A DNA stretch of 63,723 nucleotides, the filler included, from Collodictyon triciliatum (lineage: Eukaryota), in assembly GCA_043381765.1 (NCBI GenBank). It is 9 parts of 9 records of this genome, joined end to end, with 100 filler letters (N's around TTAATTAATTAA, not from the genome) between each part and the next. Parts side by side here need not be neighbours in the genome. Positions count along the whole stretch, not along the records: positions 46,292 to 52,320 come from JBHJMP010003130.1; 8 more parts are not named here. One strand, written 5' to 3'. Shown here in pieces: positions 9,196 through 61,769 of this stretch. Below the pieces are notes generated by a model. It was given only the letters and a program-made list of their open reading frames with translations. It searched no databases and was not told where the DNA came from. Within the stretch, counting starts at the first letter, position 1; each line of letters starts with the position of its first letter. A program made the position numbers and the translations under genes.

Positions 9196-9295
9196 NNNNN
9201 NNNNNNNNNNNNNNNNNNNNNNNNNNNNNNNNNNNNNNNTTAATTAATTAANNNNNNNNNNNNNNNNNNNNNNNNNNNNNNNNNNNNNNNNNNNN
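9196..9295. other. Assembly gap with artificial TTAATTAATTAA linker; same at 18376, 27640, 36932, 46192, 52321, 57215 and 61670; plain N gap at 20807-21531
   Basis: An identical 100-nt N44-TTAATTAATTAA-N44 block appears eight times; the linker puts stops in all six frames. Confidence 0.98.
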
Positions 9296-10529: not shown

Positions 10530-12330
10530 CTCATTCACTTTTGCCACACATTTGGATGCGGTGATTGAAATGCTCGCAAACATAGATTTTCTGATTCAGT
10601 CCAAAGCAGACTCACATCTGATAATAAAAGTGTCCATAATTTGATGAAGACTGCGACGATGTGCCGAAAGTGTGAACAATGACATTGTCTCTTGTCGTGT
10701 CATAAACGCGGATGTGATGGTATCCATGTTCACTCACCACAATTGTGTTGTTCGGACCTTTTGCAATCGAAACATGACCCGGCACATTATTGATTCTGAC
10801 AGTGCGCATACATCACCCCATCACATAATAAATATTGATTTTGCCTCCGCCGCATCCAATCACACACACTTCGCTCTTTGCAGTCACGCAAATGCCCTCC
10901 GGGGATGCGATTCCTTCATCGCCAGAGGATGCTGTCGCAAACGAGCGTTCGTACTCAAACACACGGTCGAACTTGTCCACTTGATTCTTGCTAAGGTTTG
11001 TGACATAAAGATTGCCTTCGCTGTCAAAGCATGGATTAAACGGATTGGAGAATCCGCCAAAGTCACTGGAATCTGTGCTTTGTGCGCTTCTTTTGCGACC
11101 CGACTGGATTGTCTCAATCATCTTGAAGTTATCATCAAAGATTTGTACACGATGATTAGAAGAGTCACAAACAGCGATGCATCCATCATGTGAAATGGAG
11201 ATTCCGATTGGATTGCTGAATTTACTTAAGCCTGAGCCATCCGTGCCAACCGTGCAGAAAAAGCTCAAATCCTCATTCAGCACTTGAACGCGGTGGTTAC
11301 AACGAACAACAACGAATATGTTCATAGTCTTTGGATGAGCTGCGATTTCCCCATGGATTAGAAAACTGTTGGGCTCCACTTCCATTTGAACCGACCTTCT
11401 TCTGAAACACGTAATCTTTGATGTTGTATTTCCACGGCTTCTGATACAAGTCTATGTCCATTCTCTTCTTCATTTCCTCCCCCTCTTTCATCTTCCCTTG
11501 CTCCATATTTGCAATATGTTCCTTCATTACGCGATGCTCCTGTACCTCACTCTCCGGCTCTTACATGTGCTTGTCTGTCTCGTTCATGCGTCTGCCACTC
11601 GGCGTTTTCTGTTCACAGCTCTTCCAAGACCGACTCACACTTTGCGTGGATTTCCTCCAGCACACGCGCCCCGCCTTCTCCTATCACAACGATGCCGCCA
11701 ATCTCGATGCTTGCTTACGGCTGCTCTACATCCACATTGCCGACTTCTTCGATGTCTATCTGCAAAGCTGTGCGAGCAAACATGGCGATCTTGAAAAGCT
11801 AGGTCACGAGTCCGTCGCGCTCGTATATCTCCTTGGGCTTTCTGAGCATGGAAATGGAGTGCCATAGAATGTTCTCTGATACCGCCATTCGATGCTATAT
11901 GTACTTGGTTTTTCCTGCAAGGCTACGATAGCCTGAATTCATTATCATCATCATTTTCCATGTTTAGTGAATTATGGATACAATCACACAACATAAAAAA
12001 AACCAATTTAGATTGCCAATACCGGACAATAACGATGATAAAAGGATTGATTACAGTTTCTTTCAGCTTCTCCTTCAGCTGTGCTGCTTTCTGCACAACA
12101 TCATCGTAAAATTTGTCGATCTTTGCATTTTGGTCTCGCTCCTCAGCATCAATCTAAGGAATTGAATATTCGAGGAAATAAACAGAAAAGAAGAAACATA
12201 TATAGCTTGAGCACTTCATGAATATACATTTTTCATTTCGCTCTCGACTTTTGACCTGATTTCAGCCCTTGCGTTGTTTTTCTTTCCATCTCCCCAATCA
12301 AGTCGTCATCCTTGATAGCATCATAATCGA
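10530..12330 (-). pseudogene. Coiled-coil + NHL-repeat beta-propeller (TRIM-NHL-like) pseudogene
   Basis: NHL repeats: GSGLSKFSNPIGI..IAVCDSSNHRVQIF, FSNPFNPCFDSEGNLYVT, IYVCEHFNHRIQ. Frameshift near 11350 (FSNPWG / EIAAHP), in-frame TGA at 10813 and 10612, and in-frame TAG/TAA/TGA at ~11550-11800. Upstream coiled-coil exon IDAEERDQNAKIDKFYDDVVQKAAQLKEKLKE at ~12055-12155. Confidence 0.8.
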
Positions 12331-13066: not shown

Positions 13067-16000
13067 TTAAGCTGTGGCTTTCTGTCTCCATTCAGCTGCT
13101 TTCTCGGTGTCCTTTCCAACACCCCATCCATTCTCATAGCACTCAGCAACAATAGAAACAGCTTGTGGATGTTTGTGTTTTTCACCAATTTTGTCTCCCC
13201 ATGTCTTGTATGTCAGAATGTCTTCCTTCATTCCGGCCATTTCCTTCAAAAAATTGAATGCCTCCTTTGAACCCTGTTGAACCAGTTCCTTCAGTTTTTC
13301 AAAGTCTAATGATAATTTCAAAGGAGCGATAACTTTCCAAAATTGAGCTCTCTCATTGTCCTTCTCAACACCCCATCCGTTTTCATAGCACTCAGCCATC
13401 ATCTGAGCCTGGAACTTAGTGAGCTTACCCTGCTCACAATAGACAGCAAAGTCCGCATCAAAGGAAGCAGCACCGATTGAAAGTAGGAGGGATTTGTTTA
13501 GTTGACTTAATCCTGTGACATTTCTGATTTGGATGTTTCCACCTTGCAGCTTTCTTGGGCCGATAATCTGGACTGTCTTTGCATCTTGGATTCTGTTGGT
13601 GTCAATCATGTTCATCGCGTCACTTGTTCTGTTGAATACTGCGATGACTTCCTCAGGCTTTTCTTTCTTGACGAGGTATTTTCCTTGGGTGTAAGTCACT
13701 TCTGATTTTTGCAGACTGTGTGTTTGGTTTCCTGTGGCTACATCCCAAATAATTATTGTTTTATCACCACTTCCAGAAGCCAGCCAATTTTCATCATTCG
13801 GTCCTTGAATATTGCAAATACAAATTAATTCGCTTGTGTGACCCTCTAATGTTTTGGTATGATTTCCAGTGGCTATATCCCAAACACGTATTGTTTTATC
13901 ACGACTTCCAGAAGCCAACCATTTTTCACCATTCGGCCCTTGAATACTGCAAACACTCTTGACACCTTCTGTATGTCCTTCTAATGTTTTGATTTGGTAT
14001 CCTGAGGCTACATCCCAAACACGTATTGTTTTATCTTGACTTCCAGAAGCCAACCATTTTTCACCATTCGGCCCTTGAATACTGCAAACACTCCTGATAC
14101 CACCCCAATGACCTTCTAATGTTTTGATTTGGTTTCCTGTGACTACATCCCAAATACGTATTGTTTTATCATTGCTTCCAGATACCAGCCAATTTTCACC
14201 ATTTGGTCCTTGAATACTGCAAACACTAGTGACAAAATCTGTATGACCTTTTAATGTTTTGATTTGGTGTCCTGTGACTACATCCCAAATACGTATTGTT
14301 TTATCATAACTTCCTGAAGCCAGCCAATTTTCACCATTCAGTCCTTGAATGCTGCAAACACAATTGACACCGTCTGTATGTCCTTCTAATGTTTTGATTT
14401 GGTTTCCTGTGGCTACATCCCAAATATGTATTGTTTTATCATCGCTTCCAGATGCCAGCCAATTTTCACCATTAGGTCCTTGAATACTGCAAACACTGAT
14501 GACACCGTATGTATGATCTTCTAATGTTTTGATTTGATTCCCTGTGGCTACATCCCAAATACTTATTGTTTTATCAAGACTTCCAGAAGCCAGCCACTTT
14601 TCACCATTAGGTCCTTGAATAGTGCAAACACAATTGACACCGTCTGTATGTCCTTCTAATGTTTTGATTTGGTTTCCTGTGGTTACATCCCAAATACGCA
14701 TTGTTTTATCTTCACTCCCAGAAGCCAACCAACTTTCACCATTCGGTCCTTGAATAGTGCAAACACTTCTGACACCGTCTGTATGTCCTTCTAATGTTTT
14801 GATTTGGTTTCCTGTGGCTACATCCCAAATACGTATTGTTTTATCCCGACTTCCGGAAGCCAACCAACTTTCACCATTCGGTCCTTGAATAGTGCAAACA
14901 CTTCTGACATAACCTGTGTGTCCTTCTAGTTTATCATGAGGAATTCCAAATTTCACATTATTCATATTCGCATTATCAAAAACACAGTCACCAAGCATCG
15001 AATTCGTGAAATCAACACCATCCAAGTTGGCACCAGTGAGATTTGCACCATCAAGGATTGAGTTATTGAGATTTGCATGTGGAATTTTGATGTTTGATAA
15101 ATCCATTCCACCAAGCGAAAAATTCATGAAATTCAAAAGTGTGATTGCATCAGATGCAGCCTTTGATTTGCTCTCATCAGTCTTTGACATATAGACAATT
15201 CTGAATAACGATGCAATAATTTGCTCACGATTCCATTCCTCATCTAGTTTTGTATCATCAAGAGTTTCACAGATGAATTCCTTGACTCTTGTTAACTCGA
15301 CAGGCTCTTTGAAGATTCCGATTTCTTTTGAATGGACGGACAAGTATTCGCACGAATTTAATGTTCTGGAGTGAATCCATCCGACTTTATCAGCAAATCT
15401 GTCTCTCATCTCAGTCCAGAATGCCATTGCTTCCTTGTGCTGCTTCAGTTCCTTGTAAGTCTTGTCTGCATTCTCACAAGCCACCCAGCAGTCCCAGTTT
15501 TCATAGGACTTTTCATCATGTCTGACAGCAGCTGTTTTGTAAAGCCGAATGACGGCTTCATGCTCTTTCTTGTCCTTCATGAGTTCCGCAATCCTTGTAC
15601 ATTGTGAACCATCTTTCAGTGACATGATTGTCTTAGTCTTCTTTCTGATAGCAGCTGCCTTCTGGAAGCAATCAACACATTGAGCAGAACTAGGTGCATG
15701 TAGATTAGTGAATATATATGTATTGTTTTTTATAACTATTAATAATAATATTCGATTTCTTTTAATATAAAGAAAAAAACCTTTGAAGCTCAAAGTTTGT
15801 TCGGCCAACATTCTCAAGGGAAGTCGCATAATCTGCATGCTTTTCGCCCAGTGTTCTCATGCGAATATCCAGCGTCTTTGTATAGGCCTCCAAAGCACCC
15901 TTAAAGCTAAGATAATTAGAGTAAATAAATTAATCTTTTCAATTAAAAATATGTAATAATTAATAAAAAGAGATACTCTTTCAAATCATGGCTGATGTCT

Positions 16001-18375: not shown

Positions 18376-18475
18376 NNNNNNNNNNNNNNNNNNNNNNNNN
18401 NNNNNNNNNNNNNNNNNNNTTAATTAATTAANNNNNNNNNNNNNNNNNNNNNNNNNNNNNNNNNNNNNNNNNNNN

Positions 18476-20756: not shown

Positions 20757-21790
20757 ATAAAGTCTGCTTTTCGACGCTCTCTGATCTTTCAAAAACTGAG
20801 GAGTTCNNNNNNNNNNNNNNNNNNNNNNNNNNNNNNNNNNNNNNNNNNNNNNNNNNNNNNNNNNNNNNNNNNNNNNNNNNNNNNNNNNNNNNNNNNNNNN
20901 NNNNNNNNNNNNNNNNNNNNNNNNNNNNNNNNNNNNNNNNNNNNNNNNNNNNNNNNNNNNNNNNNNNNNNNNNNNNNNNNNNNNNNNNNNNNNNNNNNNN
21001 NNNNNNNNNNNNNNNNNNNNNNNNNNNNNNNNNNNNNNNNNNNNNNNNNNNNNNNNNNNNNNNNNNNNNNNNNNNNNNNNNNNNNNNNNNNNNNNNNNNN
21101 NNNNNNNNNNNNNNNNNNNNNNNNNNNNNNNNNNNNNNNNNNNNNNNNNNNNNNNNNNNNNNNNNNNNNNNNNNNNNNNNNNNNNNNNNNNNNNNNNNNN
21201 NNNNNNNNNNNNNNNNNNNNNNNNNNNNNNNNNNNNNNNNNNNNNNNNNNNNNNNNNNNNNNNNNNNNNNNNNNNNNNNNNNNNNNNNNNNNNNNNNNNN
21301 NNNNNNNNNNNNNNNNNNNNNNNNNNNNNNNNNNNNNNNNNNNNNNNNNNNNNNNNNNNNNNNNNNNNNNNNNNNNNNNNNNNNNNNNNNNNNNNNNNNN
21401 NNNNNNNNNNNNNNNNNNNNNNNNNNNNNNNNNNNNNNNNNNNNNNNNNNNNNNNNNNNNNNNNNNNNNNNNNNNNNNNNNNNNNNNNNNNNNNNNNNNN
21501 NNNNNNNNNNNNNNNNNNNNNNNNNNNNNNNAAAAAATATTGATCAATCTTCTTCACTAAGAAATCTAAGCACCACACGAAAGAGAAAAGGAGGGAGGAG
21601 AGAGAGAAGAGAGGAGAGAGAGAAGAGAGGAGAGGAGAGAGAGAGGAAGATCGCCCCACAGGATAAACAGCGCGTGTCCCACTCTTTGCCGTTGCGCAGC
21701 GAGTGGTCGAGAGACACTCCTTCTCTTCAGTGGTGTGCCTTAAGAGTCTTGGCTCCACTGTCTCTTAGACGCAAGGATGCCTGCCTCATG

Positions 21791-27639: not shown

Positions 27640-27794
27640 NNNNNNNNNNNNNNNNNNNNNNNNNNNNNNNNNNNNNNNNNNNNTTAATTAATTAANNNNN
27701 NNNNNNNNNNNNNNNNNNNNNNNNNNNNNNNNNNNNNNNCAGAGTCTCATATGTGTAATATTGATGGATATTCAGCCAGCATGAATGCTTTACT

Positions 27795-30256
27795 CACAGT
27801 GTATCGAACGGCACAAATGCAGGCACATAGGGCGTGGTCAGGCACATCGGTTGGCGCGTTCCATATAGCCTATTTATAAATAAAAATAAAAATGCATCCG
27901 AAGTTGTCATGATTCATTTTTCATTGAAGATAAATTTTAATATTTTTCCCTTTATTATATTGAAAGACTAGAATAAGTGTCACATAATATTCACTAACCA
28001 CAACCGCATCGCCGATAAAGTCGACCACGGTTCCACCTGTTGCTATGATGATGCTAGAGACCTCTTCTAGATAGTCCTCCAATATCTCGACAAGTGCCTC
28101 TGCTGATATGGACTCAGATAACGTCGTGAACCCTTCGATATCTGTAAACAAAAGCATTGAATTATGGTGTGTTTCGCAAGCAGCTGGGGTTTCTTTCCCC
28201 TATAGCTCTATTTCTGATACTTCAAATAAGGAAATATGATTATCTGGCTTCATCAATCCATAAATGAGTGACCTGTAAACATCACCGTCACGTTCCTGCG
28301 ATCTAAAAACAGCTGGCCTTGGTTGTTTGAGTCTGCGACTATTCTCTTGACAACAGCCATGGGTACAAACTTTCCGAAGGACTGCAAAGCTGTGTCCATT
28401 ACCTGGTGTTAAAAAACGGTTGAGCTTCACATTTTTGAGTTTTCAACATAATTGTTTTCGCAGTATAAAAAATTGTTCCAACCTGGAATGAAGATTGAAT
28501 CATTCGAATCTCACGCAATGTAGAGCTTGAGTCACCCTGGTTTCAATTGTTTGATTCGAATCAATTGCTCATCTCACATATAGAGCACACGATGAGCTAG
28601 TTACTTTTAGCTTCCATTTAAAACTTATGTAATGTCTTTTGAAAATTTCGGTAAAAATATTTATTATTTGCATCGTAATATTTTATGATTATTACCGATA
28701 CTCTTTTCTCAAAGTTGAGCTTGGATATGTTTTGCATGGCTTCTGCGACCACTTTCAATGGCCTGAGTTACAAAAATAGTTGAAAAATGTTTTCTTGAAA
28801 TATGAAAAATATTTAAGCACTCATATGTTTTATACAATCTCTATATAAATACTCTACCTGCTGATGTAAGTCGACACAACCATTGTGATAACCAGTGTGA
28901 CGACAAAAAGCACAGCGGTAAGTACTGATGATAAAATAATCATGCTGTCGATTTTTCCAAAAATGTCGTCTCTTGGAATCAGCACCACGATAGTCCATTC
29001 GATTCCACCTCGAGGGTCGATTAGAGTTGAAGCCAATGCAAAGTATTGAGTTTTTCCATGCTTGAAAGAATAGGACCTTGTATTTGTTAAGGGTCTGATG
29101 TGTCCATTTTCGTCCTTGTCCAAAGCGTTTGCAGACTTTATCATAAGGCTGTTTTCTGTCTGCAAGTACGTGTAATGTCTTCCTGTCGAATCAACAAAAG
29201 GAGCACCCAAAGTGTTTGCGATTACCTTCGTGTCCTTCTGTAATATATAAGCAAATCCATTTTCGCTTGTCTTTATTGTGTCGAGTATATCTTGAACTAC
29301 ATACAAATACATTTCAACAGAGACAACTCCGATAATTATTTGGCTTGTTTTGTAGTCATATATAGGCCGGACTGCAGTTACTCCAAGAATAACTCCATTC
29401 GGGTTCCATGATGAATATACAGCTCCCCATGTGGGACCTTTCGCTTTTGTTGCTGCGATATACCAAGCTCTTTTTGTCACATTAAAGTTTGGGAAAGCAT
29501 TTATGAGGCGCATTTCATTTGTGGGACTCGCAAGTAAGGAGTTATTAATTGGTGAATAAAATGCTAGTGTATTATTCGTTGACTTATCAAAACATCCAAT
29601 GGATGGTACTCCAAAATCATTCCACATTCCAACCAATCCAAAATCAGTTGCCGATCCGTAGAAAGCCTTGGGTATCTTGTTAGTTCCGTTTGTCACCCCA
29701 AAAAAAGCTCTTCTTGCAGCATAAAAGTTGCAATGGTCTCGAACATTTTCGATGGACCAGCCTTGCAGAGTTGAGTTCAGTGATCTTGCTAACTCATGCG
29801 GATTATCAAGAGCAGCTTGAACCTGACTCTTAATCCTCTCCATGGTTTGGTCTTGCAGTTGGTTCGAAATATTCTCTACTGCAGAAAATCCAAAGATATA
29901 GGAGGGTACAACGCTCACCAAGGCAACAGATACAACGGAGAAGAAGGACAGCAGTAGAATCGAGTTACGCAAAGATATTGTGCGTAGGATACTCTTCTTC
30001 AATTCGGTTTGTGACTGTTTCGAATAGTACCGTGTTGGATTAATTGCGATGGTTTGATAACTTGACTGGCAGAAATTTCTTAGCATATGAAAACATCGCA
30101 AAAACCTCACTTTATGCGATCAAGAAATATTAAGGATAAATCGGGGGGAAATATACTCACTTCGGTCCAGGCGTTATTATTTGGATCTTTGGGAGCGGGC
30201 GAGTCATCTGATGCCAGAGATATGCGCTGTTTGTTTTCTTGTGTGTGAGGTGTCAT
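27795..30256 (-). CDS. Receptor-type class III nucleotide cyclase (TM-Cache-TM-HAMP-cyclase); 3' part cut by gap
   Basis: ATG at 30256. The large exon ~30065-28858 has TM1, Cache motifs (FNVTKRAWY, PTWGAVY, IGVVSVEM, GFAYIL, EWTIVVLIP) and TM2. HAMP: RPLKVVAEAM..LREIRMIQSSF. Then SFGKFVPMAVV and catalytic VTVMFTDIEGFTTLSE..GGTVVDFIGDAV..AIWNAP..DHA. Confidence 0.92.
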
Positions 30257-32458: not shown

Positions 32459-33110
32459 TTAACTGATTTGGATTTTACAGAGTTTATGATGTTGTAGACC
32501 AAACAGAATGTTGGAAGTGCTGAGTCGATTGGGAACATAATCAAGCTCAGAGAGCATCTCGTGGGTAGATTCTGTCACTTTTTGAGCCAGAGAGCACTTC
32601 AAAAATGTGTGTTCGATAGATTCATCTCCACTATGGTACATGGTGCATTCTGGAGAGGTCGTTGCTGCGTGGACTACACGCACACATATCCACAGCTCTC
32701 TGTTGGATATATTGAGCAGTAGGGCGCGGTGTTTCGGGAGTAACTGAGTTATACGGACTTGCTTCCTGCTTTTGACTATCGACGGGTCTATACTACTATA
32801 TTTTCGGACCAACGACTCATTTTCTCCGGTTATTAAGGATTCGGACTGATGATTTTGCATCGAAACAGCTTGAATATACCATAGACATTGAGAATTGTAG
32901 ATAATCGGGTATAATTGACCGTCTTAGGTCCTTCAGTGGAGAGAAATAAATATTAACTTCAACATTATTTTTGACCAATTATTGGTCCTTGTGTCGTTAA
33001 TATCCTTATATTATGTTCTATTCATTTGATATGGCGCCATTATATAATTATTTTTGATTATTAGAATGGGTAGTATTTTTTTCGGATATATTTCATTTTG
33101 CTGGGGGCAA
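32459..33110 (-). mobile_element. Degenerate non-LTR retrotransposon ORF2 fragment with zf-RVT-like zinc knuckle
   Basis: PECTMYHSGDESIEHTFLKCSLAQKV..NILFG is a zf-RVT-type motif with one Cys lost. It is preceded, across a frameshift, by LQFSMSMVYS. Confidence 0.75.
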
Positions 33111-36931: not shown

Positions 36932-37031
36932 NNNNNNNNNNNNNNNNNNNNNNNNNNNNNNNNNNNNNNNNNNNNTTAATTAATTAANNNNNNNNNNNNN
37001 NNNNNNNNNNNNNNNNNNNNNNNNNNNNNNN

Positions 37032-41620: not shown

Positions 41621-42925
41621 TTGATAAGCATTTATGGCTTGCCAGGCAGAAAAGAAAAAGAGAAGATTAATAATAAAAAAAAAAATAAATAAAAGAAAAA
41701 AGGGACAAAGGACAAAAGAGATTGTTGGGATTAGGGATTGTAACAATATACACTGCTTTGTAAACCCCACCTATCCACGTCCGAAAGCGAGACCAGAATC
41801 CTCTGCGCTCCGCCCGCTCTATTGAAATGGCACAATGTTTGAAATATCGGAATTGCCATGGGCTAAGAATGTAAAATAAAGATAAAATAAAAAAATAAAA
41901 AAACAAGAGAGAGAGAAAGAGAGAGACAAGGGATGTTGTGTTTCTCTGGTTTGTTTGGGACAACGGAGGGCTTACTGGGGAGATCAAAGGGCTGGCTTTC
42001 TTGAGGAAGGCTTTTCCTGTTGGATGCTGCCTGCTCTTTCGTGCGAGTGTGCAGATGCTGATCGCACGACATCGTCCTCCCAAACCTGCTTTGCTGCGTG
42101 TGATCGGTGCTGTTCGTTGTTGTGGGGTGTGTCTGTGCGATGCAAAGTCGTAGTTCATGCGCATAATCTGCGTTAGCATACTTTTTTTTGTTCGATGTAA
42201 TATTGAATTAGTGAATAATGAACAAATATGGAGTTTTTCGGATAAATGGACAATTTGAGAGGTTTGATTATTTAATAATAAAGATATGTTATATATTCCA
42301 GTAATGTACATCCAGATATGGTGCAGAGTTTCGGCGTTGTAGTTTTATGCTCAAAGAAGGCATAATCCCATTTCGTAACTTCCTTATTTGTAATGAAGAA
42401 GCAAGTTTGGAAGAGAAGATTGTGATGCATTTACCTTTTCTGTTGTGAGTGACGCCTGCACACGTGTGCTGATGAGGTTATGACGAGGCAAAGACCGCCA
42501 GTGAGCTGGTATTGCGTGTTGTGACGTGTGTTCATCAAATCTTGGTGCGCAAATGGAAGGAATCCAAGCGTAGAGAGCAACTTTTAAGGCAGGAAAGGAT
42601 AAAAAAAGCCAAGTGTGAGTGTGAGTGTAGCCATGTCTGTATCCAAGTCGGGGGCTTCAGTGCCTATATATGCGAGATGCATTTTCTTCCAGCGGCTCCA
42701 ATTCATCACAAATTAAAGCAAACTGAATTAGCAAGCACAGTTCCATTCGGTTGAAAAGGCTATGCACGATTTCACACACCCCTTTGTCTACGAAAATAGC
42801 ATAGTTAGTATCATTCCTAGACATGTATTGTGAATAACATAAAAATAACAATAACAACAACAACAACAACAACAATAATAATAATAATAATAATAATACG
42901 AACATTATACCGATCAGAAAGAAAG

Positions 42926-43513
42926 ATGGGCACACAAGCTTCGGATGGTTCTCATGTTCCGTTAGCTGGCGGAGAAATTGAAGCACGCGAGCTTATTCAC
43001 GAGCAAATAATTTGCTACCTACAATCCTCATGTATCATGACAGACAATCAAGAGCAGAACAGCAGCTTCGATGCAGTTGGGCGTGCCTTGCCTTTACGCT
43101 CGGTAAGGGAAGTCATCTTCCTAATTCGCACACACTCGCTAGCTTGTGATTCATGTCTCGGCGTTGCTATTCTGTACGCTCATAGATACATACGCACAAA
43201 AAATCTTCTCCTCACTCAGAGGAATGTCGCGCCGTTATTTTCTGTGTGTCTGGCTGTAGCAGCAAAGTGCGTGGATGATTTTGCGTTCAATAATCGCACA
43301 TTCGCAAATCTTGTGGCCCTTCCTGCCCCGCTATTTAATCTCTTGGAGCTCGAAGTTCTATCCGTGCTTCGGTTTCGTCTGGTAATCCCACATTCACGTG
43401 TAATCTCACTATTAGAGACTTTCAGATCAATATCTGTTCAGTTAGCACAAACTAATGCTTCTCTTGCTTCTCCTCCTTCGTCTGCATCATCAACTTCGGC
43501 CGAATCTTGCTAG
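42926..43513 (+). CDS. PHO80/P(U)-type cyclin, intronless
   Basis: CLGVAILYAHRY..LFSVCLAVAAKCVDDFAFNNRTFA..FNLLELEVLSVLRFRL matches the PHO80-like cyclin box. ATG at 42926. Confidence 0.88.
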   Translation: MGTQASDGSHVPLAGGEIEARELIHEQIICYLQSSCIMTDNQEQNSSFDAVGRALPLRSVREVIFLIRTHSLACDSCLGVAILYAHRYIRTKNLLLTQRNVAPLFSVCLAVAAKCVDDFAFNNRTFANLVALPAPLFNLLELEVLSVLRFRLVIPHSRVISLLETFRSISVQLAQTNASLASPPSSASSTSAESC

Positions 43514-44976
43514 TATATCATTTTCTCTATTTTACAAAAAAAAAAATTCACACTTTGCTGATCCGATCACAAACTCTAATGCTCTACGTTGATTTGATCT
43601 GATGCAAAAAACCTTTCATTGAACTTCAAAAAAAAAATCATGTTTTCCCGCATTGCTCTGCGATATATATTGTTTTCACGACTCCAATCGACGATGCCCT
43701 CGGCGAATCATTTTTAAACAAAGATAATTTACTTGAAATACAATCGTATCCTCGATTTAATTGTGCGAAGGAGTTTCGCTGCGGCTTGACTGCACTTGAA
43801 GATGCCTTTGTTGAATGCGAGGTTGTGCGATTGCTTTGTAATACCGAATATCACACGTCCTTGAATTGTTCTTAATCCCGAGGCCTGTGGTGGCGCAAGG
43901 AGGTAGCCCGTATGGTCGCTGTGGCACAAGAAGCTTCCAGAACACTCAATCCGTTTGGCATGATTTGCCCACGCTCGAAAAGGATAGACTGCTTGGGAAT
44001 GAAGAGCCCATTCGGGAAGCACGTCAAGAGGCTTGTTTCTTTATTGGTACTTGCCTACCTGAAAGAGAATCACTTGAGCGCCAACTCTAAGCGAAACTAT
44101 TACCAAAGACGAAGACACAATCCGAAAAAGTTGAAGACACACTTCCTATATAAGAATCTGGGGACGAATATGGTTGAGTTTTTTCGAAGACTTCACTGGA
44201 TAGGGCTATCCAAATCTTAAAGAGGCGGGCACTGATTGCGAAGATAGTCCCTCATAAAGAAGGAGGGATAAACCGGCCATGCAATTTTGGATGCAGCACA
44301 AGAAAATCAGGAGAATTTGTTAGCTATAGCAAGCCATGTATGGAAGCACTATCGTATCATTTTCCAGAAAATTGGGGGAATGTGGCAGTGGATGCTGCTT
44401 TTGGCAGAGAGAAGAAAATCAAATGGAGAATTTATTTATTTTGTCTGTGTGTTTGTGTGGTTATGCGTTGCTGTTTTGCAGTATTAAACAAGAAAGAAAG
44501 CAGTTGGTTGGAATTGGAGGGAATGTGGAAAGCATGTGGGCAGGCGTCTTTGTTTTTCAAGAGTTGCTTGGTCACGCCTAAAGAGAGCGCACAGCAGCTA
44601 CCAAAGACACAAAAATCTGCTTCTTCGAGCCCAAAAAACAAGCGGCAGGCAAGTCATCCACCGATTCAGAGCACAGTCGACAAGACTGCCGATACAAAAC
44701 CGTATCCCAGAAACTCCTCACCTTCTCTATTGAATCAAAAACATCCCAAAAGCATCGACATCTTTTCTCTCTTCCCAAAGAAAAGAAAGATTTTTTTTAA
44801 ACAAAAAAAAGCAAAGAGGGAGGACGAGGAAGACAGGAAACTCTGAATCTGACCCAAACAAAAACTCAACAAAAGGCAGATAAAGATCAACGAGCTTCTG
44901 GCCAACCAACGAAGAGCAAAATCACTAAACAAATCACTGCATTTCAACCCTCACAGACGCACACGCGAACTCACAG

Positions 44977-45753
44977 ATGACCACACCGACACAAACTATG
45001 GAGCTGAGCGGCCCAGACACAGAACGACTGCACCGGCAAGTTTGCAATTATCTGCGGTCCTTGACAGTACGCGGTGTGGACGAGGGTGGGATTCTAGACA
45101 CACGAGCGGCCAGCACGTTGGATGCAAGCATCTTCCACCTTGTGGAAAGCAAGCAGAGCGTGGAAGATATGCTTGAGATTGCGCATTCCTGCAGCGTAAC
45201 GAGTGGCGAGGCTGTGTGCATGGCCGTGCTCTACATGAACCGCTTCATGCACGCCACGCGTATCCCGCTGACTTCACGCACATGTCCGGTCCTGTTCATC
45301 GCCGCCTTGACTCTGGCCGCAAAGTATCTCTACGACACGCCCTACAACAACGCAACATTCGCCCGCATCGCTGCCCTCCCCACTGTCCTCCTCAACATGC
45401 TGGAGATTGAACTCCTCCGCGCGCTGCGTTTCCGTCTCCATCTCCATCCCGACCGCGTCCTCGCCCTCCGTGACGCGCTTCTCTCCCCAGAAGTTGCCCC
45501 CACAGACCCTGGCATCCCGGTTAATAGCAGTCTTAATGTCATCCGCTCTGCAAGTCCTGCTCTTGTCCACCCTGCACACCGCAGAGCCTCACGTGCTTCC
45601 CCGTCTCCGCACGCGTCTACACGGAGTGCCGCGAGTGCAGGTGCGAATCCAAATACTGATGCCGATGTTGATGCTGACCGGCCAAAGAATAATCCAGTGC
45701 AGAGGCGCTCCTTCCGGCTTAGGTCCTTCTTTTCGCGAGACTCGTCTTCATAG
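44977..45753 (+). CDS. PHO80/P(U)-type cyclin, intronless; paralog of 42926-43513
   Basis: VCMAVLYMNRF..LFIAALTLAAKYLYDTPYNNATFARI..LNMLEIELLRALRFRL, with an S/R-rich tail. Confidence 0.9.
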   Translation: MTTPTQTMELSGPDTERLHRQVCNYLRSLTVRGVDEGGILDTRAASTLDASIFHLVESKQSVEDMLEIAHSCSVTSGEAVCMAVLYMNRFMHATRIPLTSRTCPVLFIAALTLAAKYLYDTPYNNATFARIAALPTVLLNMLEIELLRALRFRLHLHPDRVLALRDALLSPEVAPTDPGIPVNSSLNVIRSASPALVHPAHRRASRASPSPHASTRSAASAGANPNTDADVDADRPKNNPVQRRSFRLRSFFSRDSSS

Positions 45754-46291
45754 ATTTTCCGATACATGCATTACTTTATGTTCACAATTCCTTCTTTTTT
45801 TTTTTGTACTATATATCTCCTGCACCGATGGTTTTATTCGTGGATTTAGACTTTTTGCTACTCCCTCGTCTTCTATTCTCCATTCGATATTAGGGGGGAT
45901 TCATAATTTCCGCTCCTTTCTCTTCGTTTTTTTTATGTGTGTGGTGAATACTTTGTCCGTGCTTCTATGTTGGATCAGTAGCTTGAGTTTGTTGATTGAT
46001 TTGGTTGTCCATTCATCATTATTCCTTTTTTTTTTCTGGCCCCATAAAAGTTCAATCTCTTTACGTGGCCATTTGACTGGCACTGTTATTGATGTGAATA
46101 AAAAAAATTGAAATAGGCAAAAAAAAAAAAAAAAGAGGGAGATTGATTGATGGGCTTTGTCCGCACACCAGGAAAACAGCCTTCATTGGGTNNNNNNNNN
46201 NNNNNNNNNNNNNNNNNNNNNNNNNNNNNNNNNNNTTAATTAATTAANNNNNNNNNNNNNNNNNNNNNNNNNNNNNNNNNNNNNNNNNNNN

Positions 46292-46420
46292 TTTTCCTTT
46301 TCCTTTTTCCTTTTCCTTTTTCCTTTTTCCTTTTTCCTTTTTCCTTTTTCCTTTTTCCTTTTTCCTTTTTCCTTTTTCCTTTTTCCTTTTTCCTTTTTCC
46401 TTTTTCCTTTTTCCTTTTTC
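46292..46420. repeat. (TTTTTCC)n microsatellite
   Basis: Read directly at a contig end. Confidence 0.92.
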
Positions 46421-46661
46421 TTTTTATTCTCTTTTTCTTTTTCTTTTTCTTTTGTTCTTTTTGTTCTTTTTTCTCTTTTCTCTTTTCTCATTTTCATACC
46501 TTTTTTCATGTCTTATTTTTCTTTTTTCTCGACGCTTCCGCCAAGCTCCTTTCATGCCCTTAAGACACAAACTCGTGTAGGGAAAACCCGGAAGGCTCTG
46601 CGTTGTCGCTGCGCATCTCGCTCTAGTTGAGAAGGAAGAAAACAAAAGTTACCGCAGAGCA

Positions 46662-49600
46662 ATGGCGTACGTCTCTCCATCCCTCTCGCAGCGCCACTTC
46701 CGACTAAACCTCCTTTTTCAACCCTTCCTTTCCGAAGTTCGCGCAACGGAATACACTAGTTTCCAACTCTTTTTTTTCAGCGCATCCAAGTGTTTGAGTA
46801 CACGGACTAAACTTTTTTTCCTTTGTCCCAATTGTCCTCCTGCGTGGCTCGATGCAGATCCGTCCGAACGCCAAACTACAAGTGGGGCCAGAGAGGCGAT
46901 TGGATCGTTCTTACTTTTGATATTCCGGACGCCTCCGAGTCCAACACAAACATCCTCTTCGAAACCGAAGGGCGCATGAATCTCTGCGTCCAGATCGATG
47001 AAAGGGTTTTAACCTCTACTATATCAATTATAGATATATACTATTTATCTCTTTATCTTTGCATAATGGCTCCCAAGGAGTTTAGTTTTCTACTTATCTC
47101 CTCGTTTGTATTGGTAACTAATGTGGTAGCAGCTGATGTTTGCATCAGTCGATTATCTTTTCCCTTATTCGAACCTGTCTATTTAATTTATGTGTATTCT
47201 ATGTAAAAAAAAAAAAAAAAAAAGAGAGAAAAAGACTCACTCGCCATTTTCTTCAAAGGCGGCGTATGGACTTGATCTGCAGTTATTCGCCCCCATCGCC
47301 GAAACGGTATCATAACACCAATCTTGCAGACATATCTTTTTCTTTAGGAAAAACTCCTTGGCTTGCATGATTTCTGTATCCAGTGCCTAAACCTATTCAC
47401 TCATTTGTTTGTGTCATAATCCATTGCCTTTGCGTGAATGAAGACGATATTTGAAAACGATTTTTTAATCGGTTGTTAAAGGAATCGTCGTGGCAAAAAG
47501 TTTCGAACAAGATAGTCGTTAGAATCAAAATGGCAAAGTCTGAAAAGTGGCCCTCTCTCCAGAAACCCGAGTTACCGAAGCCAAGAACGGAAAAGCCTGA
47601 CTTCGATATGGTCTGAAATCTACCTGCGCTATTTCTTCATTATATCCTAAATTAGTCGCAATGCCCCTTGAAATATCGTCTTATGCTCTGTGTTGATCTC
47701 TAGATGGAAATCAGCGACGATGAAAGTGATGACAATGAAGGTATTCTTCGCACATCTACCAATCAATCATTTACCATCACAATCCAATACTGATTTCAAT
47801 TTATCTCGAATAACATTCCGGTTTTCTCACAAATTTAATTTGAAATGAAGGTTTGGTGAATTCTTTTATGATTCAAGACTAATGTTTTTTTTTTTTTTGT
47901 TTTTGTTTTTTTAACTAGATATTAGGAATGTTTTGAAGGGCAGAAAGCCGTACGACCCACCGATGGAGCTGCCGAAAGAGCCTGCAAGTTTTTATTAATA
48001 TTCCAATTCATGGAAAAGAACCTTTTGACGGTATTAAAACGCAAAGTTAGGTTTATGGAACTCAATATAATATATATATATATTATTCATAGGCCTTGGA
48101 TGAAATTCTCTTTGAAAAAGTGACTTCTTTTGTTGGCTACAAACCCGATATTGGAGACTTCTTTGTCTTTTGCATGATTTGGGTGTCTGTCGCTGTGTGT
48201 CCATTCACGAAAGTTGAAGAGAGTTTCAACCTGCAAGCCATTCATGATTTTGAGTACCTTCGAACCAATTTTGACTCGGTAAGCTTCGAGTTCATTTGCT
48301 CAAATCCAAATATATCACTGTATTGTCCGTTTTCAACAAAGTTGTTCTACATATCAATTAACAGTCGAAAATGAGCGCTATTTTCCATAATTTTTTATAT
48401 AAACAAATCCCTCATTTGTTATTCTCATTCTTTCTGTTTCGCCGTGTGACACCTAGTACGACCACCACGAATTTCCTGGTGCTGTTCCGCGTTCTTTCTT
48501 TGGCGCTCTTGCTGTTTCACTTCCTCTTTCGCCATTGGCTGCCGTGTTACAGTCGTACGGAGGCTCCAAAATTGTGATGTTGATTCTGTGTTAGTTCAGC
48601 TACCATATCCTCAATTTTTTTTTTTTTTGTTGAGACATCGCACACATTTTGATACCATTTCGACTTTTGTTCAACTCATGAAATAAAATCTCCCCGTCGG
48701 CAATATAAACTTTTTCTTACGTGCAGCCAGAATGTTCCTCGGAATGTTGTCTTTGTCCGCATTGGTGTACTTTCGCATCCAGGTTTTGTTATCGATGCTA
48801 TCCCTTTTATCTTATCCTCTATATCGTCCCATACGCTTCCCTTTGGTGTTGATGAAAATTTCTTTAGATTACCAAACGCTTTGGAACTGAAGTGGGGAGC
48901 ATTTTCATGATTATATTTGCCACCCAATTTCATATGGTTTTTTACATGACCAGAACTCTGCCTAATACTTTTGCACAAATCCTTGGTAGGTTTCTAGATT
49001 CCAAGGGATATTTTTTGAAAGAAAAAGAGAAAGGATATGCGTCCAGTTATTTGAAAAACTTACCAGTGAATTGAACTCTGTTTTTTAAAACGATGCTGGA
49101 AATCTTGTTATTTTTCTCTTTCCTTCTTTTTGAACAGTTAATCTTGCGTACGCTTTCTGGTTCCAAGAAAAGTTTGAGCGGTCCTTGATGACACTGGCAT
49201 TCTGTTCGGTTGTACTTCGTAGCGAAGTTGCATTGCTGGTAAAGGCATAGAAACCCATAATATTGCCTATTCAACCCATGACTCCCATGCCTTCTATTTT
49301 TAGTTCTTTCTTTATAAAGAAACTCCTCGAAAAGATTGAAATCGACACCTCTATCAACCAAATTTTGAATTGCAGGCTTTTCCGATCATGGCTCACGGAA
49401 TTTATAAGAAGCGCACTACTATTTTAAATTTCTTCATATATGGCACAGCAGCAACAATATTGGGCCTAGGTATGAACATTTCAATCGTCAGAGTTTCTTG
49501 CTCGAATCCTTTCTGTTGAATAGTGTCAAATACAACAATATTTTGTGCGAATATGACTATTTTTTGGGAGATTCGAAAAAATGCAATAAATCTGACACTT

Positions 49601-50353
49601 AATCTTAAACTTTTGTTTGTTCTCTAGTTATCACCGTTGGTATGGATTCTTTCATGTGGAAGAGGCTGACATGGCCTGAGGGCGAGTCCTTCTACTTTAA
49701 CATCGTGGAGGGGAAAAACGTCGATTGGGGAGTAAGTACTTTCTCTTTTTTTTTCTTTTTTTTGATTTCCTGTTTTCATGCACTCCAGTAAGTGGAAAAA
49801 TGAATTGATGAGGACATTTTTTGAAGCAGGATTCATATCCTATTTTCACACTCACTTTACTTAACCCCAAGGTAATGCCATTCTATTGGTACTTTTTGAA
49901 TGCCCTTCCTCGCATACTGATGTTTTCAGCCTTTTTCATTCCTATCGTAAGTCATCAATGTCTATTTGAACCAGTTATTCCAACAATATCTTCATGCCAC
50001 ACATTTGGTTTTCGATCTTTCATGAGACAATTTCAAAGATACCAATATGCCTCTGAACAATCCAAAGTCGCATCACCAATTGCATTTTGCTACGCATACC
50101 GTTGACCCTTTTACACAGATAATTTTAATAAAGCATTTTCCCCGAATTCGCAGGGTGTTAAATACGACGCGCGCATGAGATTCATTCTTGCACCCGCTGC
50201 TTTTTACCTTGCAGTCTATTCCTTCGTGCCTCATAAGGTAACATTCCGGCTTAGAATGACATAGACTTTATCAAAATGCTCTGTCATTTTTTTTAACAAT
50301 ATAAGGAGAAGTAGTCGATTCTCCCATCGACTAAACTTCATTAATAATTTTTC

Positions 50354-50414
<61 letters not shown>

Positions 50415-50767
50415 CATTTTACTAATTCACAGGTGCATGATTAGGAGCTGCGCTTCATTTTCTATGTGATTCCTCTTCTCAACCTCGCATCGGCCGCAGG
50501 TATGACCTGGCTTTACCGAAATATGGCCAAGCGACGGAAAGAAGTTTTCGCAGCTTTCGGCGCACTAGTTTTGTGCGGGTTTCTCTCCTTCGCCTTTCTG
50601 ATTGCCTCGTCCTTCAATTACCCGGGTGGACGCGCACTCCAGACACTCCACTCCATCGAAACTCCGAAGATAAAGTCAGGTTTGCTGTTGAAAATATTAC
50701 CACTTTGGAGATTGCCGCACGTTTAATATATTTAAGTGTTTGTTGATAATGCTTAGTATTATAATAA

Positions 50768-50857
<90 letters not shown>

Positions 50858-51895
50858 GAATAAGAATAATAAGAATAATAATAATAATAAGAATAATAAT
50901 AATCATAATAATAATCATAATCCTTTTGGTGTTGTTCGATCATGTGCTGAGTAAGTACTCTAAAAAAGAAAGTGAGCACAATAGTTTGTTGGAGCAGCTT
51001 TAATTGATTCACATTTTGATAAAGCCGACGAGCATTTGTTGATGCCTTACGTCCACATCGACACGGCAGCCGCAATGACAGGCGTTTCAAGATTTATGGA
51101 GTTAGGTCATCCGTGGAGGTTATCTATACATTCTAATCTGAATTGTTTTGGTCTTGCATACCATTTTGTATCGTGGCTTTGATTTATCCTGCTTTCAGTA
51201 CTTTTGTGTAGTTATTCCTTCCTCTTTCTAATTTTTATTTGATAAATTATCTGTTCATCAGCTACAGCAAGGATGAAACTACGCAAGAGTATACGAAATT
51301 CACGCATCTTGTGACAGAAAGAGAGAGTGTGGGCGGATTCCAGGTTGCTAGTAATCGATTCTGAAGCAATCACATTTACAAAGACCAAATGAAAATTTTC
51401 CAACAATTTGCTAATGTTTTTTTAAAAAGAGAAGACAAATGCAACCCTTGCTGACACAGTAGATTATTCGCTTTATGCCATTAAGTGCTTTAACTGAAAC
51501 AGCAACAAATATTAGTTAATCCGCACAGTCGAGGGTTTCGATTCCAGCAAAATCTGGGTATGCGCACCTCGAAATCGCCTCGTTCTATATTGCAGTCTTG
51601 TTCCGATTTTATATCTATTTTGCATTTTCAGTTTTAAACCAGGGTAATGCGAGAACCCAGCACAAAACAGAGAATGAATACAACATAACAACAAAAATAA
51701 TTGATAAAAATCAAACAACCACGATACACTTCTAATCGTCCTTCTTCTTAGGCACTAGAATATCCGCTTGTGCCAAAGATTTACATCCACCGCAGAGAGG
51801 ATTTGGCCTATCTTGACCACGGTGAGCCGGAAAAACATAACCACGAAGGAGAGCACCACGAGGCTCACAAGAAGGATTTGGATGACGAGTTCTGA
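46662..51895 (+). CDS. ALG12: p23/CS-domain + ALG12 (Dol-P-Man alpha-1,6-mannosyltransferase, GT22) apparent fusion, multi-exon
   Basis: CS/p23 exons: PNYKWGQRGDWIVLTF, YGLDLQLFAPI, KWPSLQK..KPDFD, acidic SDDESDD. ALG12 motifs: PFTKVEESFNLQAIHD, YDHHEFPGAVPRSF, FYMTRTLPNTF, WPEG, FVPHKELRFIFYVIP, SSFNYPGG, HIDTAAAMTGVSRF. Stop TGA at 51893-51895. ALG12 identity is strong; the fusion depends on a GC-AG intron at 47984-48092. Confidence 0.85.
50355..50413. repeat. (TTG)n intronic microsatellite
   Basis: Read directly. Confidence 0.95.
50761..50920. repeat. (AAT)n intronic microsatellite
   Basis: Read directly. Confidence 0.95.
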
Positions 51896-52213
51896 ACAAT
51901 TAGCATTCGAGAAGCATCAAATAAAACGAGATGTTTCTTTGACGTAGGGAGCGGATATGACCCGGGTTTCTGGGTTCTCTTCTCTTCTTGTCTTGTGAAG
52001 TCTTGTCATGCCTCTTCTTGTCCTGTCTTATCATATTTTCAATTTTTTTGTCAAAGACATAGCATTTTTGTTTATCTGCCGGCTGTCTGACTTGTCTTGA
52101 ATTCATATCGATGCCTCTGAATCCACATCGAGCTCGTCTGTTTTACAGAATCAATTTTAATGATGCGATGCTTTCAGCTGCTTGATTTCTTGACTATGTA
52201 AGTATATCTTTTC

Positions 52214-52252
<39 letters not shown>

Positions 52253-52263
52253 AAAAAATTATT

Positions 52264-52306
<43 letters not shown>

Positions 52307-52421
52307 AAGAAATACAAAAANNNNNNNNNNNNNNNNNNNNNNNNNNNNNNNNNNNNNNNNNNNNTTAATTAATTAANNNNNNNNNNNNNNNNNNNNNNNN
52401 NNNNNNNNNNNNNNNNNNNNT

Positions 52422-57177: not shown

Positions 57178-58081
57178 ACGGCCGTTTTTTTTTTTTTTAT
57201 TTAAATTTTTTTTTNNNNNNNNNNNNNNNNNNNNNNNNNNNNNNNNNNNNNNNNNNNNTTAATTAATTAANNNNNNNNNNNNNNNNNNNNNNNNNNNNNN
57301 NNNNNNNNNNNNNNTTTTTTATTTTGGTTTTTGGTTTTTTTTTTTTTTTTTTTTGTTCCCCCTTTTTTTTTTTTTTTTTTGTTTAAAAATACTGGGTGAA
57401 ACGTTATATATTTTTTTGTTTTGTTTACTTTTTGTGACTACGGCCGTATTCGATTTCTTAAATGAAACATTATTGTACCAAACAGCTACATGTTGAAGCT
57501 ATTCAGAGATTTTGTTTTTCACCAGGTATACTATGTCTATTGCTTATATATAATCTCTTATTTCACAAATGTCGATTTTGGATTCGTGTCTATTGAAGAA
57601 ACGAATTCTTTCTTCATAGATTGACGAAAGCGGGAAGCCTGTTATTGATTTGGGGCACATTGTCGATTGTTTAAACAAGGTAAGCCAAGATTATGCTCCT
57701 TTCAATTTCAAAGTATTTTCAATCATCTGCTTCAATTTCAGAGGCTTTGTGAGAGTAACTCAGATTTCCTTCTTTTTTTTCTATATTTCTTGTATCGATC
57801 ATTTCCAGTTGGATGCGGGATGCGATGAACGGATTATGTTAATGGACAGAGAAGAAAAGAACATCCTAGTTGTCACGTTTGTACTTGCGCTCAGTTGAGC
57901 ATTTAACCTTACAAATCAAGAATTCACCGGCGTTTTTCTTTCTTTTTTTCTTTTTTTTTTTTATTATCTTTTTAATGATTGGGGCTATGTAAAGGCAAAA
58001 ATTAAAATTAGATACAAGGATTTGAAAAAGAGCATCGAGCAATCGTTTGATGAGCTTATGGCTTTCGGTCGATTATCGTAA
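52607..58081 (+). CDS. PAN3: PAN2-PAN3 deadenylase subunit PAN3, multi-exon; start upstream of or in the gap
   Basis: CCCH finger CHDLVTQGSCSLEGNGCEYSH, then a P/Q-rich linker, then pseudokinase (DGRVYALR, WRRISHPNIV, EALLWT, IRLSGAG). C-terminal knob: LVKLGVINERP..WSETGER, YMLKLFRDFVFHQ, DLGHIVDCLNKLDAG. Stop TAA at 58079-58081. Confidence 0.95.
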
Positions 58082-60640: not shown

Positions 60641-61440
60641 TAAAGCAACATAAAGATTGAGCGTTGCTTCATTGAACTACAAGGACACTCAATCTACAAA
60701 TAAGTGCGCATGCACAAATATCATGACAACCTTGAGCAATTCCTCGGCCATGAAGGTGCTGACGTTTCCGATACCCTGCAACGCAATTCTCTTGCCCGAG
60801 AGACTTCCCAGTCCCAAGTGGTCAAGTGCACCTTCCATGGCACAGACGACGCCGATGGCCGTCGGATGGGATGGATTCCCGCTGCCTCCGAGTTCAGGCG
60901 GAATGCAGGTTGTGAATCGCGTTTGTCGGTAAACCTGAGTCACATCGTCAACAGTCACGCCAGCGTCTTCGGCAGTCACGTATATCCCGCGAAGGGATGT
61001 CATGAAGCGTCCAAACTCTTGGAAAACAGAATCGCGAAAATCTCTGATGTAAAAGAATGCAAGTTAATATAAAAAGAAAAAAGAAAAAAAAAGGAGAGAT
61101 TACATCTAAGTTTAACAATCTTCACTTGCTCAGTCATTTCAATTTTCATATTTCCAAAAAAAAAAAAAACATATTTTATTAGGTCGCTCATTTTAAGTTG
61201 GTGTAGTGAAAAAAATAAGCATATATCTTAAAAATAAAGCGGAATGAAAACCTGCGAGCCCATAGCTCATCTAGTTGGGGGCTGCGTGCGATGACAGCCT
61301 TTCCTCCGCCCCACCAAAGCCCAGCAAGTGCATTTTTACGGCACATCCCAACACTGAGACGGAGTCCATCCCGGAGGTAGTCTTCCATTCGGGTGTATGT
61401 CCAGAGACGAACACCGCCTGCGCTTTGGCCTCGAACTTTC
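59033..61440 (-). CDS. Glu/Leu/Phe/Val dehydrogenase (leucine-dehydrogenase-like), multi-exon; 5' end cut by gap
   Basis: AGGVRLW..DGLRLSVGMCRKNALAGLWWGGGKAVI, YVTAEDAG, GGSGNPSHPTA, IALQGIGNV, DIVAPNALGG, ICGAANNQL, YVPDFLANRMG, HPIWGHR. Stop at 59033. Confidence 0.93.
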
Positions 61441-61769
61441 TTCCCCAGAGAAGAAATCCAGCATTAATGAATGTTAATTAATTATCGTTACTCTTGCATG
61501 ATGAGCCAGTTAGTATTCACTCGAATATATCGCGTCTTATTTTTTTTTCGTGCATACAGAGATGATAACATAAATGTATATATTTTGTGTTTTTTCAATT
61601 GATTGGAAATATAATCCGATCCTGAATTCAAAATGGTTGTAAAAGAAAGCGCTCTGTCCGCGGTGTAAANNNNNNNNNNNNNNNNNNNNNNNNNNNNNNN
61701 NNNNNNNNNNNNNTTAATTAATTAANNNNNNNNNNNNNNNNNNNNNNNNNNNNNNNNNNNNNNNNNNNN

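Follow-up and report, generated by a model that had tools for sequence, protein, structure and literature searches.

A p23-type CS domain probably joined to the mannosyltransferase ALG12 across a GC-AG intron in Collodictyon triciliatum

Results

Exon structure of the CS-ALG12 locus

The window analysed here, a stretch of 63,723 nucleotides (nt) from the Collodictyon triciliatum assembly GCA_043381765.1, contains at positions 46292-52320 a contig on which coding regions for a p23-type CS domain and for the endoplasmic reticulum (ER) mannosyltransferase ALG12 follow one another, both on the plus strand. We read them, with a probability of about 0.82, as one 20-exon gene in which exons 1-6, encoding a p23/Sba1-type CS domain and its acidic tail, would be spliced to a complete ALG12 encoded by exons 7-20. 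As both coding regions lie on one unbroken contig, their adjacency is no scaffolding artefact. The surroundings of the gene are AT-rich (about 37% G+C) and hold many spliceosomal introns, and a complete model of the gene was found to be open, with 659 amino acids (aa) encoded across 20 exons and 19 introns of 85-345 nt. Eighteen of these introns are GT-AG and one, at the junction of the two coding regions, is GC-AG, the sole GC donor among the 19.

Splice sites were placed by trying all GT or GC donors against all AG acceptors between in-frame anchors of neighbouring exons, and solutions were accepted where the frame was open, without a stop, and at most 12 residues off the length of the matching segment in Diphylleia rotans. 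The CS frame has no methionine upstream of TPNYKW in exon 2, and a small upstream ATG exon is therefore needed; the inferred start codon lies in exon 1 (46662-46666, ATGGC, followed by the donor GTACGT). Exon 2 (46858-47005) encodes the first half of the CS domain, ..SVRTPNYKWGQRGDWIVLTFDIP.., and was matched by tblastn to residues 3-47 of the D. rotans protein P0076 at 49% identity, with a Pfam CS match to this half domain at E 0.001. Exon 3 (47259-47306), encoding the middle of the domain (AAYGLDLQLFAPIAET), and exon 5 (47704-47740), encoding the acidic tail (MEISDDESDDNE), were both placed by the splice-site search and the gene model. Between them, exon 4 (47482-47610) holds the last part of the CS domain, including WPSLQ (W at 47548-47550), and the proximal tail motif PDFD, whose F at 47602-47604 is the equivalent of Sba1 F121. 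The last p23-type exon, exon 6 (47919-47983), encodes DIRNVLKGRKPYDPPMELPKEP and gives the C-terminal reading ..IRNVLKGRKPYDPPMELPKEP.

Exon 7 (48093-48278) carries a linker, the first transmembrane helix (TM1, about 48159-48206) and the loop motif TKVEESFN. Its translation is stop-free (ALDEILFEKVTSFVGYKPDIGDFFVFCMIWVSVAVCPFTKVEESFNLQAIHDFEYLRTNFDS) and starts ALDEILFEKVTSFVGYKPDIGDFFVFCMIWVSVAVCPFTKVEESFNLQ.., with the first in-frame methionine only at 48174 (MIWVSVAVCPFTK), inside the hydrophobic segment. The first Glu of TKVEESFN, at 48216-48218, is the equivalent of the catalytic base E35 of chicken ALG12 (GgALG12). The remainder of the ALG12 module is encoded by exons 8-12 (48457-48589, 48727-48782, 48868-48985, 49138-49238 and 49376-49469), exons 13-16 (49628-49731, 49872-49946, 50154-50237 and 50445-50679) and exons 17-20 (51025-51118, 51262-51343, 51516-51557 and 51752-51895, with the stop codon at 51893-51895), all on the plus strand. 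These rest on Pfam Glyco_transf_22 matches to single exons, on collinear tblastn alignment to P0076 through its residue 651 and on the splice-site search. Glyco_transf_22 was detected on three ALG12 exons, most strongly at 48868-48987 (27.8 bits; cut-off 23.8), the other two matches being weaker. In the supported model the CS domain is thus no small soluble protein but begins a membrane protein of 659 aa. The contig also carries microsatellites: (TTTTCC)n at its 5' end (46292-46440), (GTT)n at 50340-50410 within the intron preceding exon 16, and (AAT)n at about 50757-50900 within the 345-nt intron following it.

The GC-AG junction intron

The junction intron (47984-48092, plus strand) is 109 nt long, with the donor CCT/GCAAGT and the acceptor TTATTCATAG/G. 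A reading made earlier from the sequence alone (the sequence-only reading) had placed the end of the p23-like exons at ..MELPKEP (47983), directly before GCAAGT at 47984, and had the acceptor CATAG (48092) lead in frame into ALDEILF..PFTKVEESFN of ALG12; the sequence bore out the first placement and translation the second, with an acceptor of ..TTCATAG ending at 48092 and a frame opening at 48093 into ALDEILF..CPFTKVEESFN, and a search over splice sites for this exon pair returned exactly one solution, 47984/48092. It had also put the stop of an unspliced p23 near 47997, and if the intron is retained the frame does run through ASFY into TAA at 47996-47998. A second in-frame stop, TAG at 48090-48092, is formed by the last three intron bases directly before 48093. 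The accompanying remark that an unspliced ALG12 would have to start inside TM1, less than 200 nt from p23, was equally correct, as Met 48174 lies 176 nt past the p23 stop. GC donors are usually compensated by stronger matches at the remaining donor positions, and the AAGT found here at +3 to +6, a sequence shared by just 2 of the gene's 18 GT donors, fits that pattern.

The interval between the two coding regions also offers a different way of making ALG12. An ATG at 48010 opens a potential mini-exon (48010-48030, plus strand; ATG GAA AAG AAC CTT TTG ACG, MEKNLLT) with a donor, GTATTA, at 48031, so that ALG12 could be a separate gene with its own tiny first exon, transcribed from near 48000 behind a p23 gene ending at TAA 47996, perhaps as a minor form coexisting with the fused one. 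The ATG, the frame and the donor are all in place, the resulting 62-nt GT-AG intron (48031-48092) is in frame, GTATTA resembles donors used elsewhere in the gene (GTATTC and GTATCA, for example), and ALG12 would be given a short cytosolic N terminus as in its unfused homologues. Against this, none of the 19 introns of the gene (85-345 nt) is as short as 62 nt, and a promoter would be required inside the last p23 exon, with 11 nt between the p23 stop and the ATG at 48010. Nor is there anything like MEKNLLT in the fused open reading frame (ORF) of Diphylleia, P0076, and the other Diphylleia isoform, P0002, begins at an internal methionine without an upstream mini-exon. We regard this arrangement as quite unlikely.

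An operon-like pair was weighed in the same interval, in which the AG at 48092 would serve as a spliced-leader trans-splice acceptor and p23 would be polyadenylated after ATTAAA (48034). The two coding regions are very close and on the same strand, and ATTAAA does follow the p23 stop ahead of the acceptor. The first ATG past 48093, at 48100, is however out of frame and opens an ORF of 7 codons, while the first in-frame ATG lies inside TM1, so that the conserved codons at 48093-48173 would go untranslated. No indication of a spliced leader was seen in the window and the fused Diphylleia transcript favours cis-splicing, making this the least probable of the arrangements considered, and an extremely unlikely one.

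Comparison with Diphylleia rotans

When exon 7 was used to search for longer proteins, none came from C. triciliatum itself, and matches were obtained to P0002, a close relative, and to P0054. P0054, a JGI protein, is one ORF running from a CS domain into CPFTKVEESFN. P0002 (484 aa) and P0076 (651 aa) are isoforms i2 and i3 of the same Trinity gene of D. rotans, and P0076 contains both modules, with Pfam CS at E 3.4e-5 (25.2 bits, over the cut-off) and Glyco_transf_22 at E 5.1e-53 (residues 165-523). It reads ..EPPLELPKVKPLDEQLFEAVTDYIGYKPDLGDFFVFCMLWISIAICPFTKVEESFN, with PPLELPKVKP running directly into LDEQLFEAV, and the predicted junction PKEP/ALDE aligns to its PKVKPLDE without a gap and at equal length. 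Residues 3-651 of P0076 were found in order on the plus strand of the contig by tblastn, with identities of 53% (73/139) over the CS domain and tail, 72% (21/29) over the linker and TM1, and 68% (324/480) over ALG12, and the ALG12 part of the gene was sister to that of Diphylleia in the tree described below, with a support of 100 (Shimodaira-Hasegawa-like approximate likelihood ratio test, SH-aLRT). Judged from these alignments and from the single splice-site solution, the in-frame junction of p23 and ALG12 is more than chance.

The 27 codons before Met 48174 contain no in-frame ATG and have a TAG immediately upstream. As the linker and TM1 are 72% identical to P0076, these codons are conserved coding sequence, and in the absence of a start codon among them an upstream exon has to supply one, which in Diphylleia is the exon of the p23 tail. 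This bears directly on the idea of two separate genes, a p23 ending ..PKEPASFY (TAA 47996) and an ALG12 starting at Met 48174, with the in-frame splice a coincidence. Both of those ORFs do exist when the sequence is read unspliced, and the ORF of Diphylleia isoform P0002, called 'complete', starts MLWISIAICPFTK at the equivalent methionine inside TM1. Such a gene is nevertheless at odds with the protein-level conservation of the 27 upstream codons in Diphylleia, and its product would reach CPFTK after a mere 8 residues, although a complete TM1 precedes this motif in chicken ALG12 and in every homologue listed; the fused ORF moreover occurs as a transcript in Diphylleia and as a single exon in a metagenome locus (L005, below). 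Because a TAG stands directly upstream of exon 7, an ORF caller given a transcript that retains the intron would report exactly P0002, and we take this isoform as a possible sign of a retained intron, or of pre-mRNA, in Diphylleia, with no separate gene. We consider two genes with a start at Met 48174 very unlikely, a little more so than the mini-exon arrangement.

Some observations weigh against a single spliced CS-ALG12 gene. Exon position -1 at the GC donor is not the usual G (CCT/GC), the Pfam CS score of the stretch itself, 20.5 bits, stays slightly short of the curated cut-off of 21.3, P0002 shows that not all Diphylleia transcripts encode the fusion, and the mini-exon at 48010 has a usable start, frame and donor. 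On the other side, the structural claim of the sequence-only reading, one CS-ALG12 gene formed via a GC-AG intron, draws strong comparative, if indirect, support from the Diphylleia transcript, from architectures in public protein sets and from L005.

Distribution of the CS-ALG12 architecture

With P0054 as the query against 1.84 billion representative proteins, phmmer returned full-length proteins (P0091, P0092, P0095, P0099 and P0100) in which the CS domain and the ALG12 N terminus are covered by a single continuous match, such proteins being 644-723 aa long. Both Pfam families were found at E <= 0.001 in 8 of the 18 proteins scanned. In P0100, P0123, P0134, P0108 and P0211 the Pfam CS match was weaker than E 0.001, and these were counted as fused by the alignment motifs YKWGQ, W-x-x-LQ and D-F/W-D. 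A query made of the CS domain and TM1 gave 58 matches, of which the best 18 cover 61-98% of the query, and both Pfam families were precomputed in 7 of the 58. One further candidate, P0191, was dropped from the fused proteins, its long N-terminal extension not being CS-like. An N-terminal CS domain on ALG12 was found in the Amoebozoa Ceratiomyxa fruticulosa and Pelomyxa schiedti (KAH3755916.1), in the cryptist Palpitomonas bilix (A0A7S3LW66), and in the haptophytes Prymnesium parvum, Isochrysis galbana and Calcidiscus leptoporus. Recurrence of the N-terminal CS-ALG12 architecture in CRuMs, Amoebozoa, Haptista and Cryptista is strongly supported by these sequences, and the combination of CS with Glyco_transf_22, which the sequence-only reading had proposed looking up, is indeed represented in several lineages among public protein sets.

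A metagenome scan with P0123 did not return the contig of P0123 itself and yielded the DNA locus L005, in which a CS domain, an acidic tail, TM1 and CPYTKVEESFN..YDHLEFPG lie in one ORF (101-814). This ORF ends at a GTGAGA donor, and L005 is therefore genomic DNA, without an intron at the junction. The intron that follows this fused first exon, at 820-960 of L005, is built of degenerate CCCCGAATTCG-like repeats. A second scan, with P0076, gave 501 pattern matches, none of them confirmed by tblastn, and so provided no genomic junction intron of a relative for comparison.

In a quick LG+G4 tree of 90 ALG12 modules, from which P0123 (enzyme part <430 aa) and eight near-duplicate cluster members were left out, 10 fused rows were scattered over protist branches. 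The fused label took 6 changes on this tree, with starred branches forcing at least 2. Either a single old origin followed by losses or several origins could have given this distribution.

Identity and topology of the ALG12 module

Residues 165-588 of P0076 matched chicken ALG12 (9s6t_A) at E 6.7e-91 and ALG9 (9s6s_A) at E 1.2e-7. By way of P0076, 68% identical and sister in the tree, the enzyme part of the Collodictyon gene comes out closer to ALG12 than to ALG9, and its best named matches are annotated as ALG12. The whole enzyme part is collinear with P0076 and, via P0076, with 9s6t, and the catalytic Glu is retained in CPFTKVEESFN. At the first E of KVEES, 9s6t_A has a Q, which matches the E35Q mutant (PMC13503287) and makes the first Glu here the E35 equivalent; the numbering of the deposited chain is presumably off by 6 owing to a tag. 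The structural study (Nat Chem Biol 2026) describes ALG12 as a protein of 11 transmembrane helices with a cytosolic N terminus and a lumenal C-terminal domain, the catalytic base E35 lying in the first lumenal loop (PMC13503287). The Collodictyon module shares with canonical ALG12 (chicken, PDB 9s6t) a full-length module of glycosyltransferase family 22 (GT22) and the TKVEESFN loop with its catalytic Glu, and is inferred to be a mannosyltransferase acting on Man7GlcNAc2-PP-Dol. It differs in having about 160 residues of CS domain, acidic tail and linker before TM1, whereas in animals, fungi and dictyostelids the canonical enzyme starts 10-40 residues ahead of that helix.

Type of CS domain and its relation to Hsp90

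A profile of the fused N termini, which includes two exons of this gene, was compared with solved CS domains and matched Sgt1 (2.6e-12), At3g03773 (1.7e-11), Sba1 (1.1e-6) and PTGES3 (2.6e-4), the matches to At3g03773 and Sba1 extending beyond the domain into the tail. The W-x-x-L and D-F-D motifs of the fused family align to YWPRL and DFDKW of Sba1. On these comparisons the CS domain is p23-type. Its YKWGQR, WPSLQ and DFD with an acidic run correspond to ..WAQR.., YWPRL and DFDKW..D.DE of Sba1, in a likeness shared with p23, PTGES3 and At3g03773. In contrast to the soluble p23 co-chaperones, the CS domain here would be covalently anchored to a polytopic ER enzyme, and the tail runs into the linker and TM1 where p23 has its client-binding helix.

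In PMC7864943, Sba1 F121 is described as essential for Hsp90 binding and W124 as needed for slowing the ATPase, the human equivalents being F103 and W106. The F121 position is F or W in 30 of the 31 fused proteins, this gene included with F. At the W124 position Trp occurs in 0 of the 31, with Met here, and if Hsp90 is bound at all there is probably no p23-like action on its ATPase.

A CS domain on an ER enzyme has a precedent in HACD3 (PTPLAD1), in which a p23-like CS domain forms the N terminus of the ER very-long-chain 3-hydroxyacyl-CoA dehydratase and has been proposed to dock Hsp90 or clients at the ER surface. An N-terminal cytosolic CS domain on a multi-pass ER enzyme would be common to both proteins, as an analogy of layout only; the enzyme module is Glyco_transf_22 (GT22) here and a PTPLA 3-hydroxyacyl-CoA dehydratase there. 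HACD3 appears among the CS-domain Hsp90 co-chaperones in table 3 of PMC8694271.

A fusion with the reverse domain order

The JGI protein P0093 (776 aa) has the same two modules in one polypeptide in the reverse order: ALG12 comes first, followed by a CS domain (556-663), one more transmembrane helix and an end reading ..KKKQ. Its CS domain was matched by a hidden Markov model (HMM) of the N-terminal CS domains at E 7.1e-11. When the profile of the fused N termini was aligned to P0093 with hhalign, only the ALG12 N terminus was matched, and the C-terminal CS domain was shown by the HMM instead. P0093 differs from the Collodictyon protein also in keeping the W-D-N-W tail motif of p23. Given the 11-helix topology of ALG12, a C-terminal CS domain would very likely lie in the ER lumen. 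The occurrence of two domain orders makes a functional tie of the modules more likely and its nature less obvious.

Discussion

In the gene that we favour, removal of the 109-nt GC-AG intron at 47984-48092 would yield an mRNA for a 659-aa CS-ALG12 protein. With one hydrophobic segment between the tail and the TKVEESFN loop and no signal peptide evident, the CS domain is predicted to be cytosolic, and from the known topology of ALG12 a linker of about 55 residues would tether it to TM1. The enzyme module would act in the ER lumen, adding an alpha-1,6 mannose to Man7GlcNAc2-PP-dolichol. What the CS domain does there is a matter for more tentative proposals. By analogy with HACD3 it could serve as an interaction or co-chaperone module, anchored in the membrane and docking Hsp90 or its clients at the ER surface, a role that we hold to be possible while giving it well under even odds. 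Several observations weigh against the Hsp90 part of this proposal: the absence of Trp at the W124 position in all of the fused proteins, the lack of the fusion in all 58 metazoan-clade rows of the tree, its patchiness within Amoebozoa, where Tieghemostelium (P0007) and Balamuthia (P0106) are unfused, and the predicted lumenal CS domain of P0093, which, away from cytosolic Hsp90, does not fit a simple Hsp90 story.

If the junction intron, a weak one, were kept, translation would end 4 codons on, and the product would be a p23-like protein of about 147 aa, free of ALG12. That the cell makes regulated use of such a free p23 through intron retention is somewhat more doubtful still than the docking role. 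Lineages in which one exon spans the junction could not have such a switch. Four sequencing runs were compared with the window by sampled words: two contained 0.23 and 0.20 of them, a freshwater metatranscriptome 0.05 and the fourth 0.00, shares that speak neither way on expression or splicing. A search of Diphylleia proteins shorter than 358 aa with residues 1-141 of P0076 found no free p23 at E <= 0.001 among 29 candidates, in a source proteome that may keep one ORF per transcript. Elsewhere in the window no CS match was found in 46 hand-picked ORFs (out of 178 of at least 100 aa), a sample that says little on a second p23.

We know of no connection between ALG12 and p23, both of them textbook proteins. 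A full-text literature search, thin on subscription journals, found no paper on a CS-ALG12 fusion, in agreement with the statement of the sequence-only reading that none had been described; the fusion seems to be undescribed in print, while the architecture sits unremarked in databases. Entries that carry the fusion can bear misleading names, as with the Pelomyxa protein, which is called 'GPI mannosyltransferase'. Because the junction intron is GC-AG, gene callers are likely to split the locus or to start ALG12 at the TM1 methionine. That the fusion occurs in at least four deep lineages of eukaryotes, and with its domains in either order, hints in classic Rosetta-stone fashion at a functional link which, if true, would connect a p23-type chaperone or interaction module with N-glycan precursor assembly at the ER. 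The most far-reaching version, in which p23 and ALG12 form an old partnership, repeatedly kept or re-invented and functionally linked to the C-branch step of lipid-linked oligosaccharide synthesis, with the collodictyonid GC-AG intron acting as a switch between anchored and free forms, is in our judgement unlikely.

Other features of the window

The window consists of short contigs strung together by linkers, and neighbourhood across these linkers is therefore meaningless. The eight linkers have the form N44-TTAATTAATTAA-N44, with stops in all six frames within each, and lie at 9196-9295, 18376-18475, 27640-27739, 36932-37031, 46192-46291, 52321-52420, 57215-57314 and 61670-61769. There is in addition a single gap of 725 N at 20807-21531.

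On the minus strand at 13070-15856, an ORF of 929 aa runs without interruption and carries WD40 repeats throughout (Pfam WD40, E 7.9e-91), which is unusual next to the intron-rich gene described above. A 421-aa ORF at 28857-30119 (minus strand) has a match to a Cache-type sensor (dCache_1, E 9e-9, under the cut-off) and an MCP-like PDC match slightly over its cut-off; since the dCache and PDC families are mostly bacterial, its contig may be a contaminant or carry a transferred gene. The ORF at 32462-32923 (minus strand), with a zf-RVT match (E 1.2e-6), is probably a retroelement remnant. Further ORF pieces with Pfam matches lie at 2625-3479 (plus), 10816-11451 (minus), 42821-43510 (plus), 44929-45750 (plus) and 60692-61063 (minus), the families of these five being a Sec23/Sec24 zinc finger, an NHL repeat, two cyclin-like domains and a Glu/Leu/Phe/Val dehydrogenase, with both cyclin-like ORFs on the same contig.

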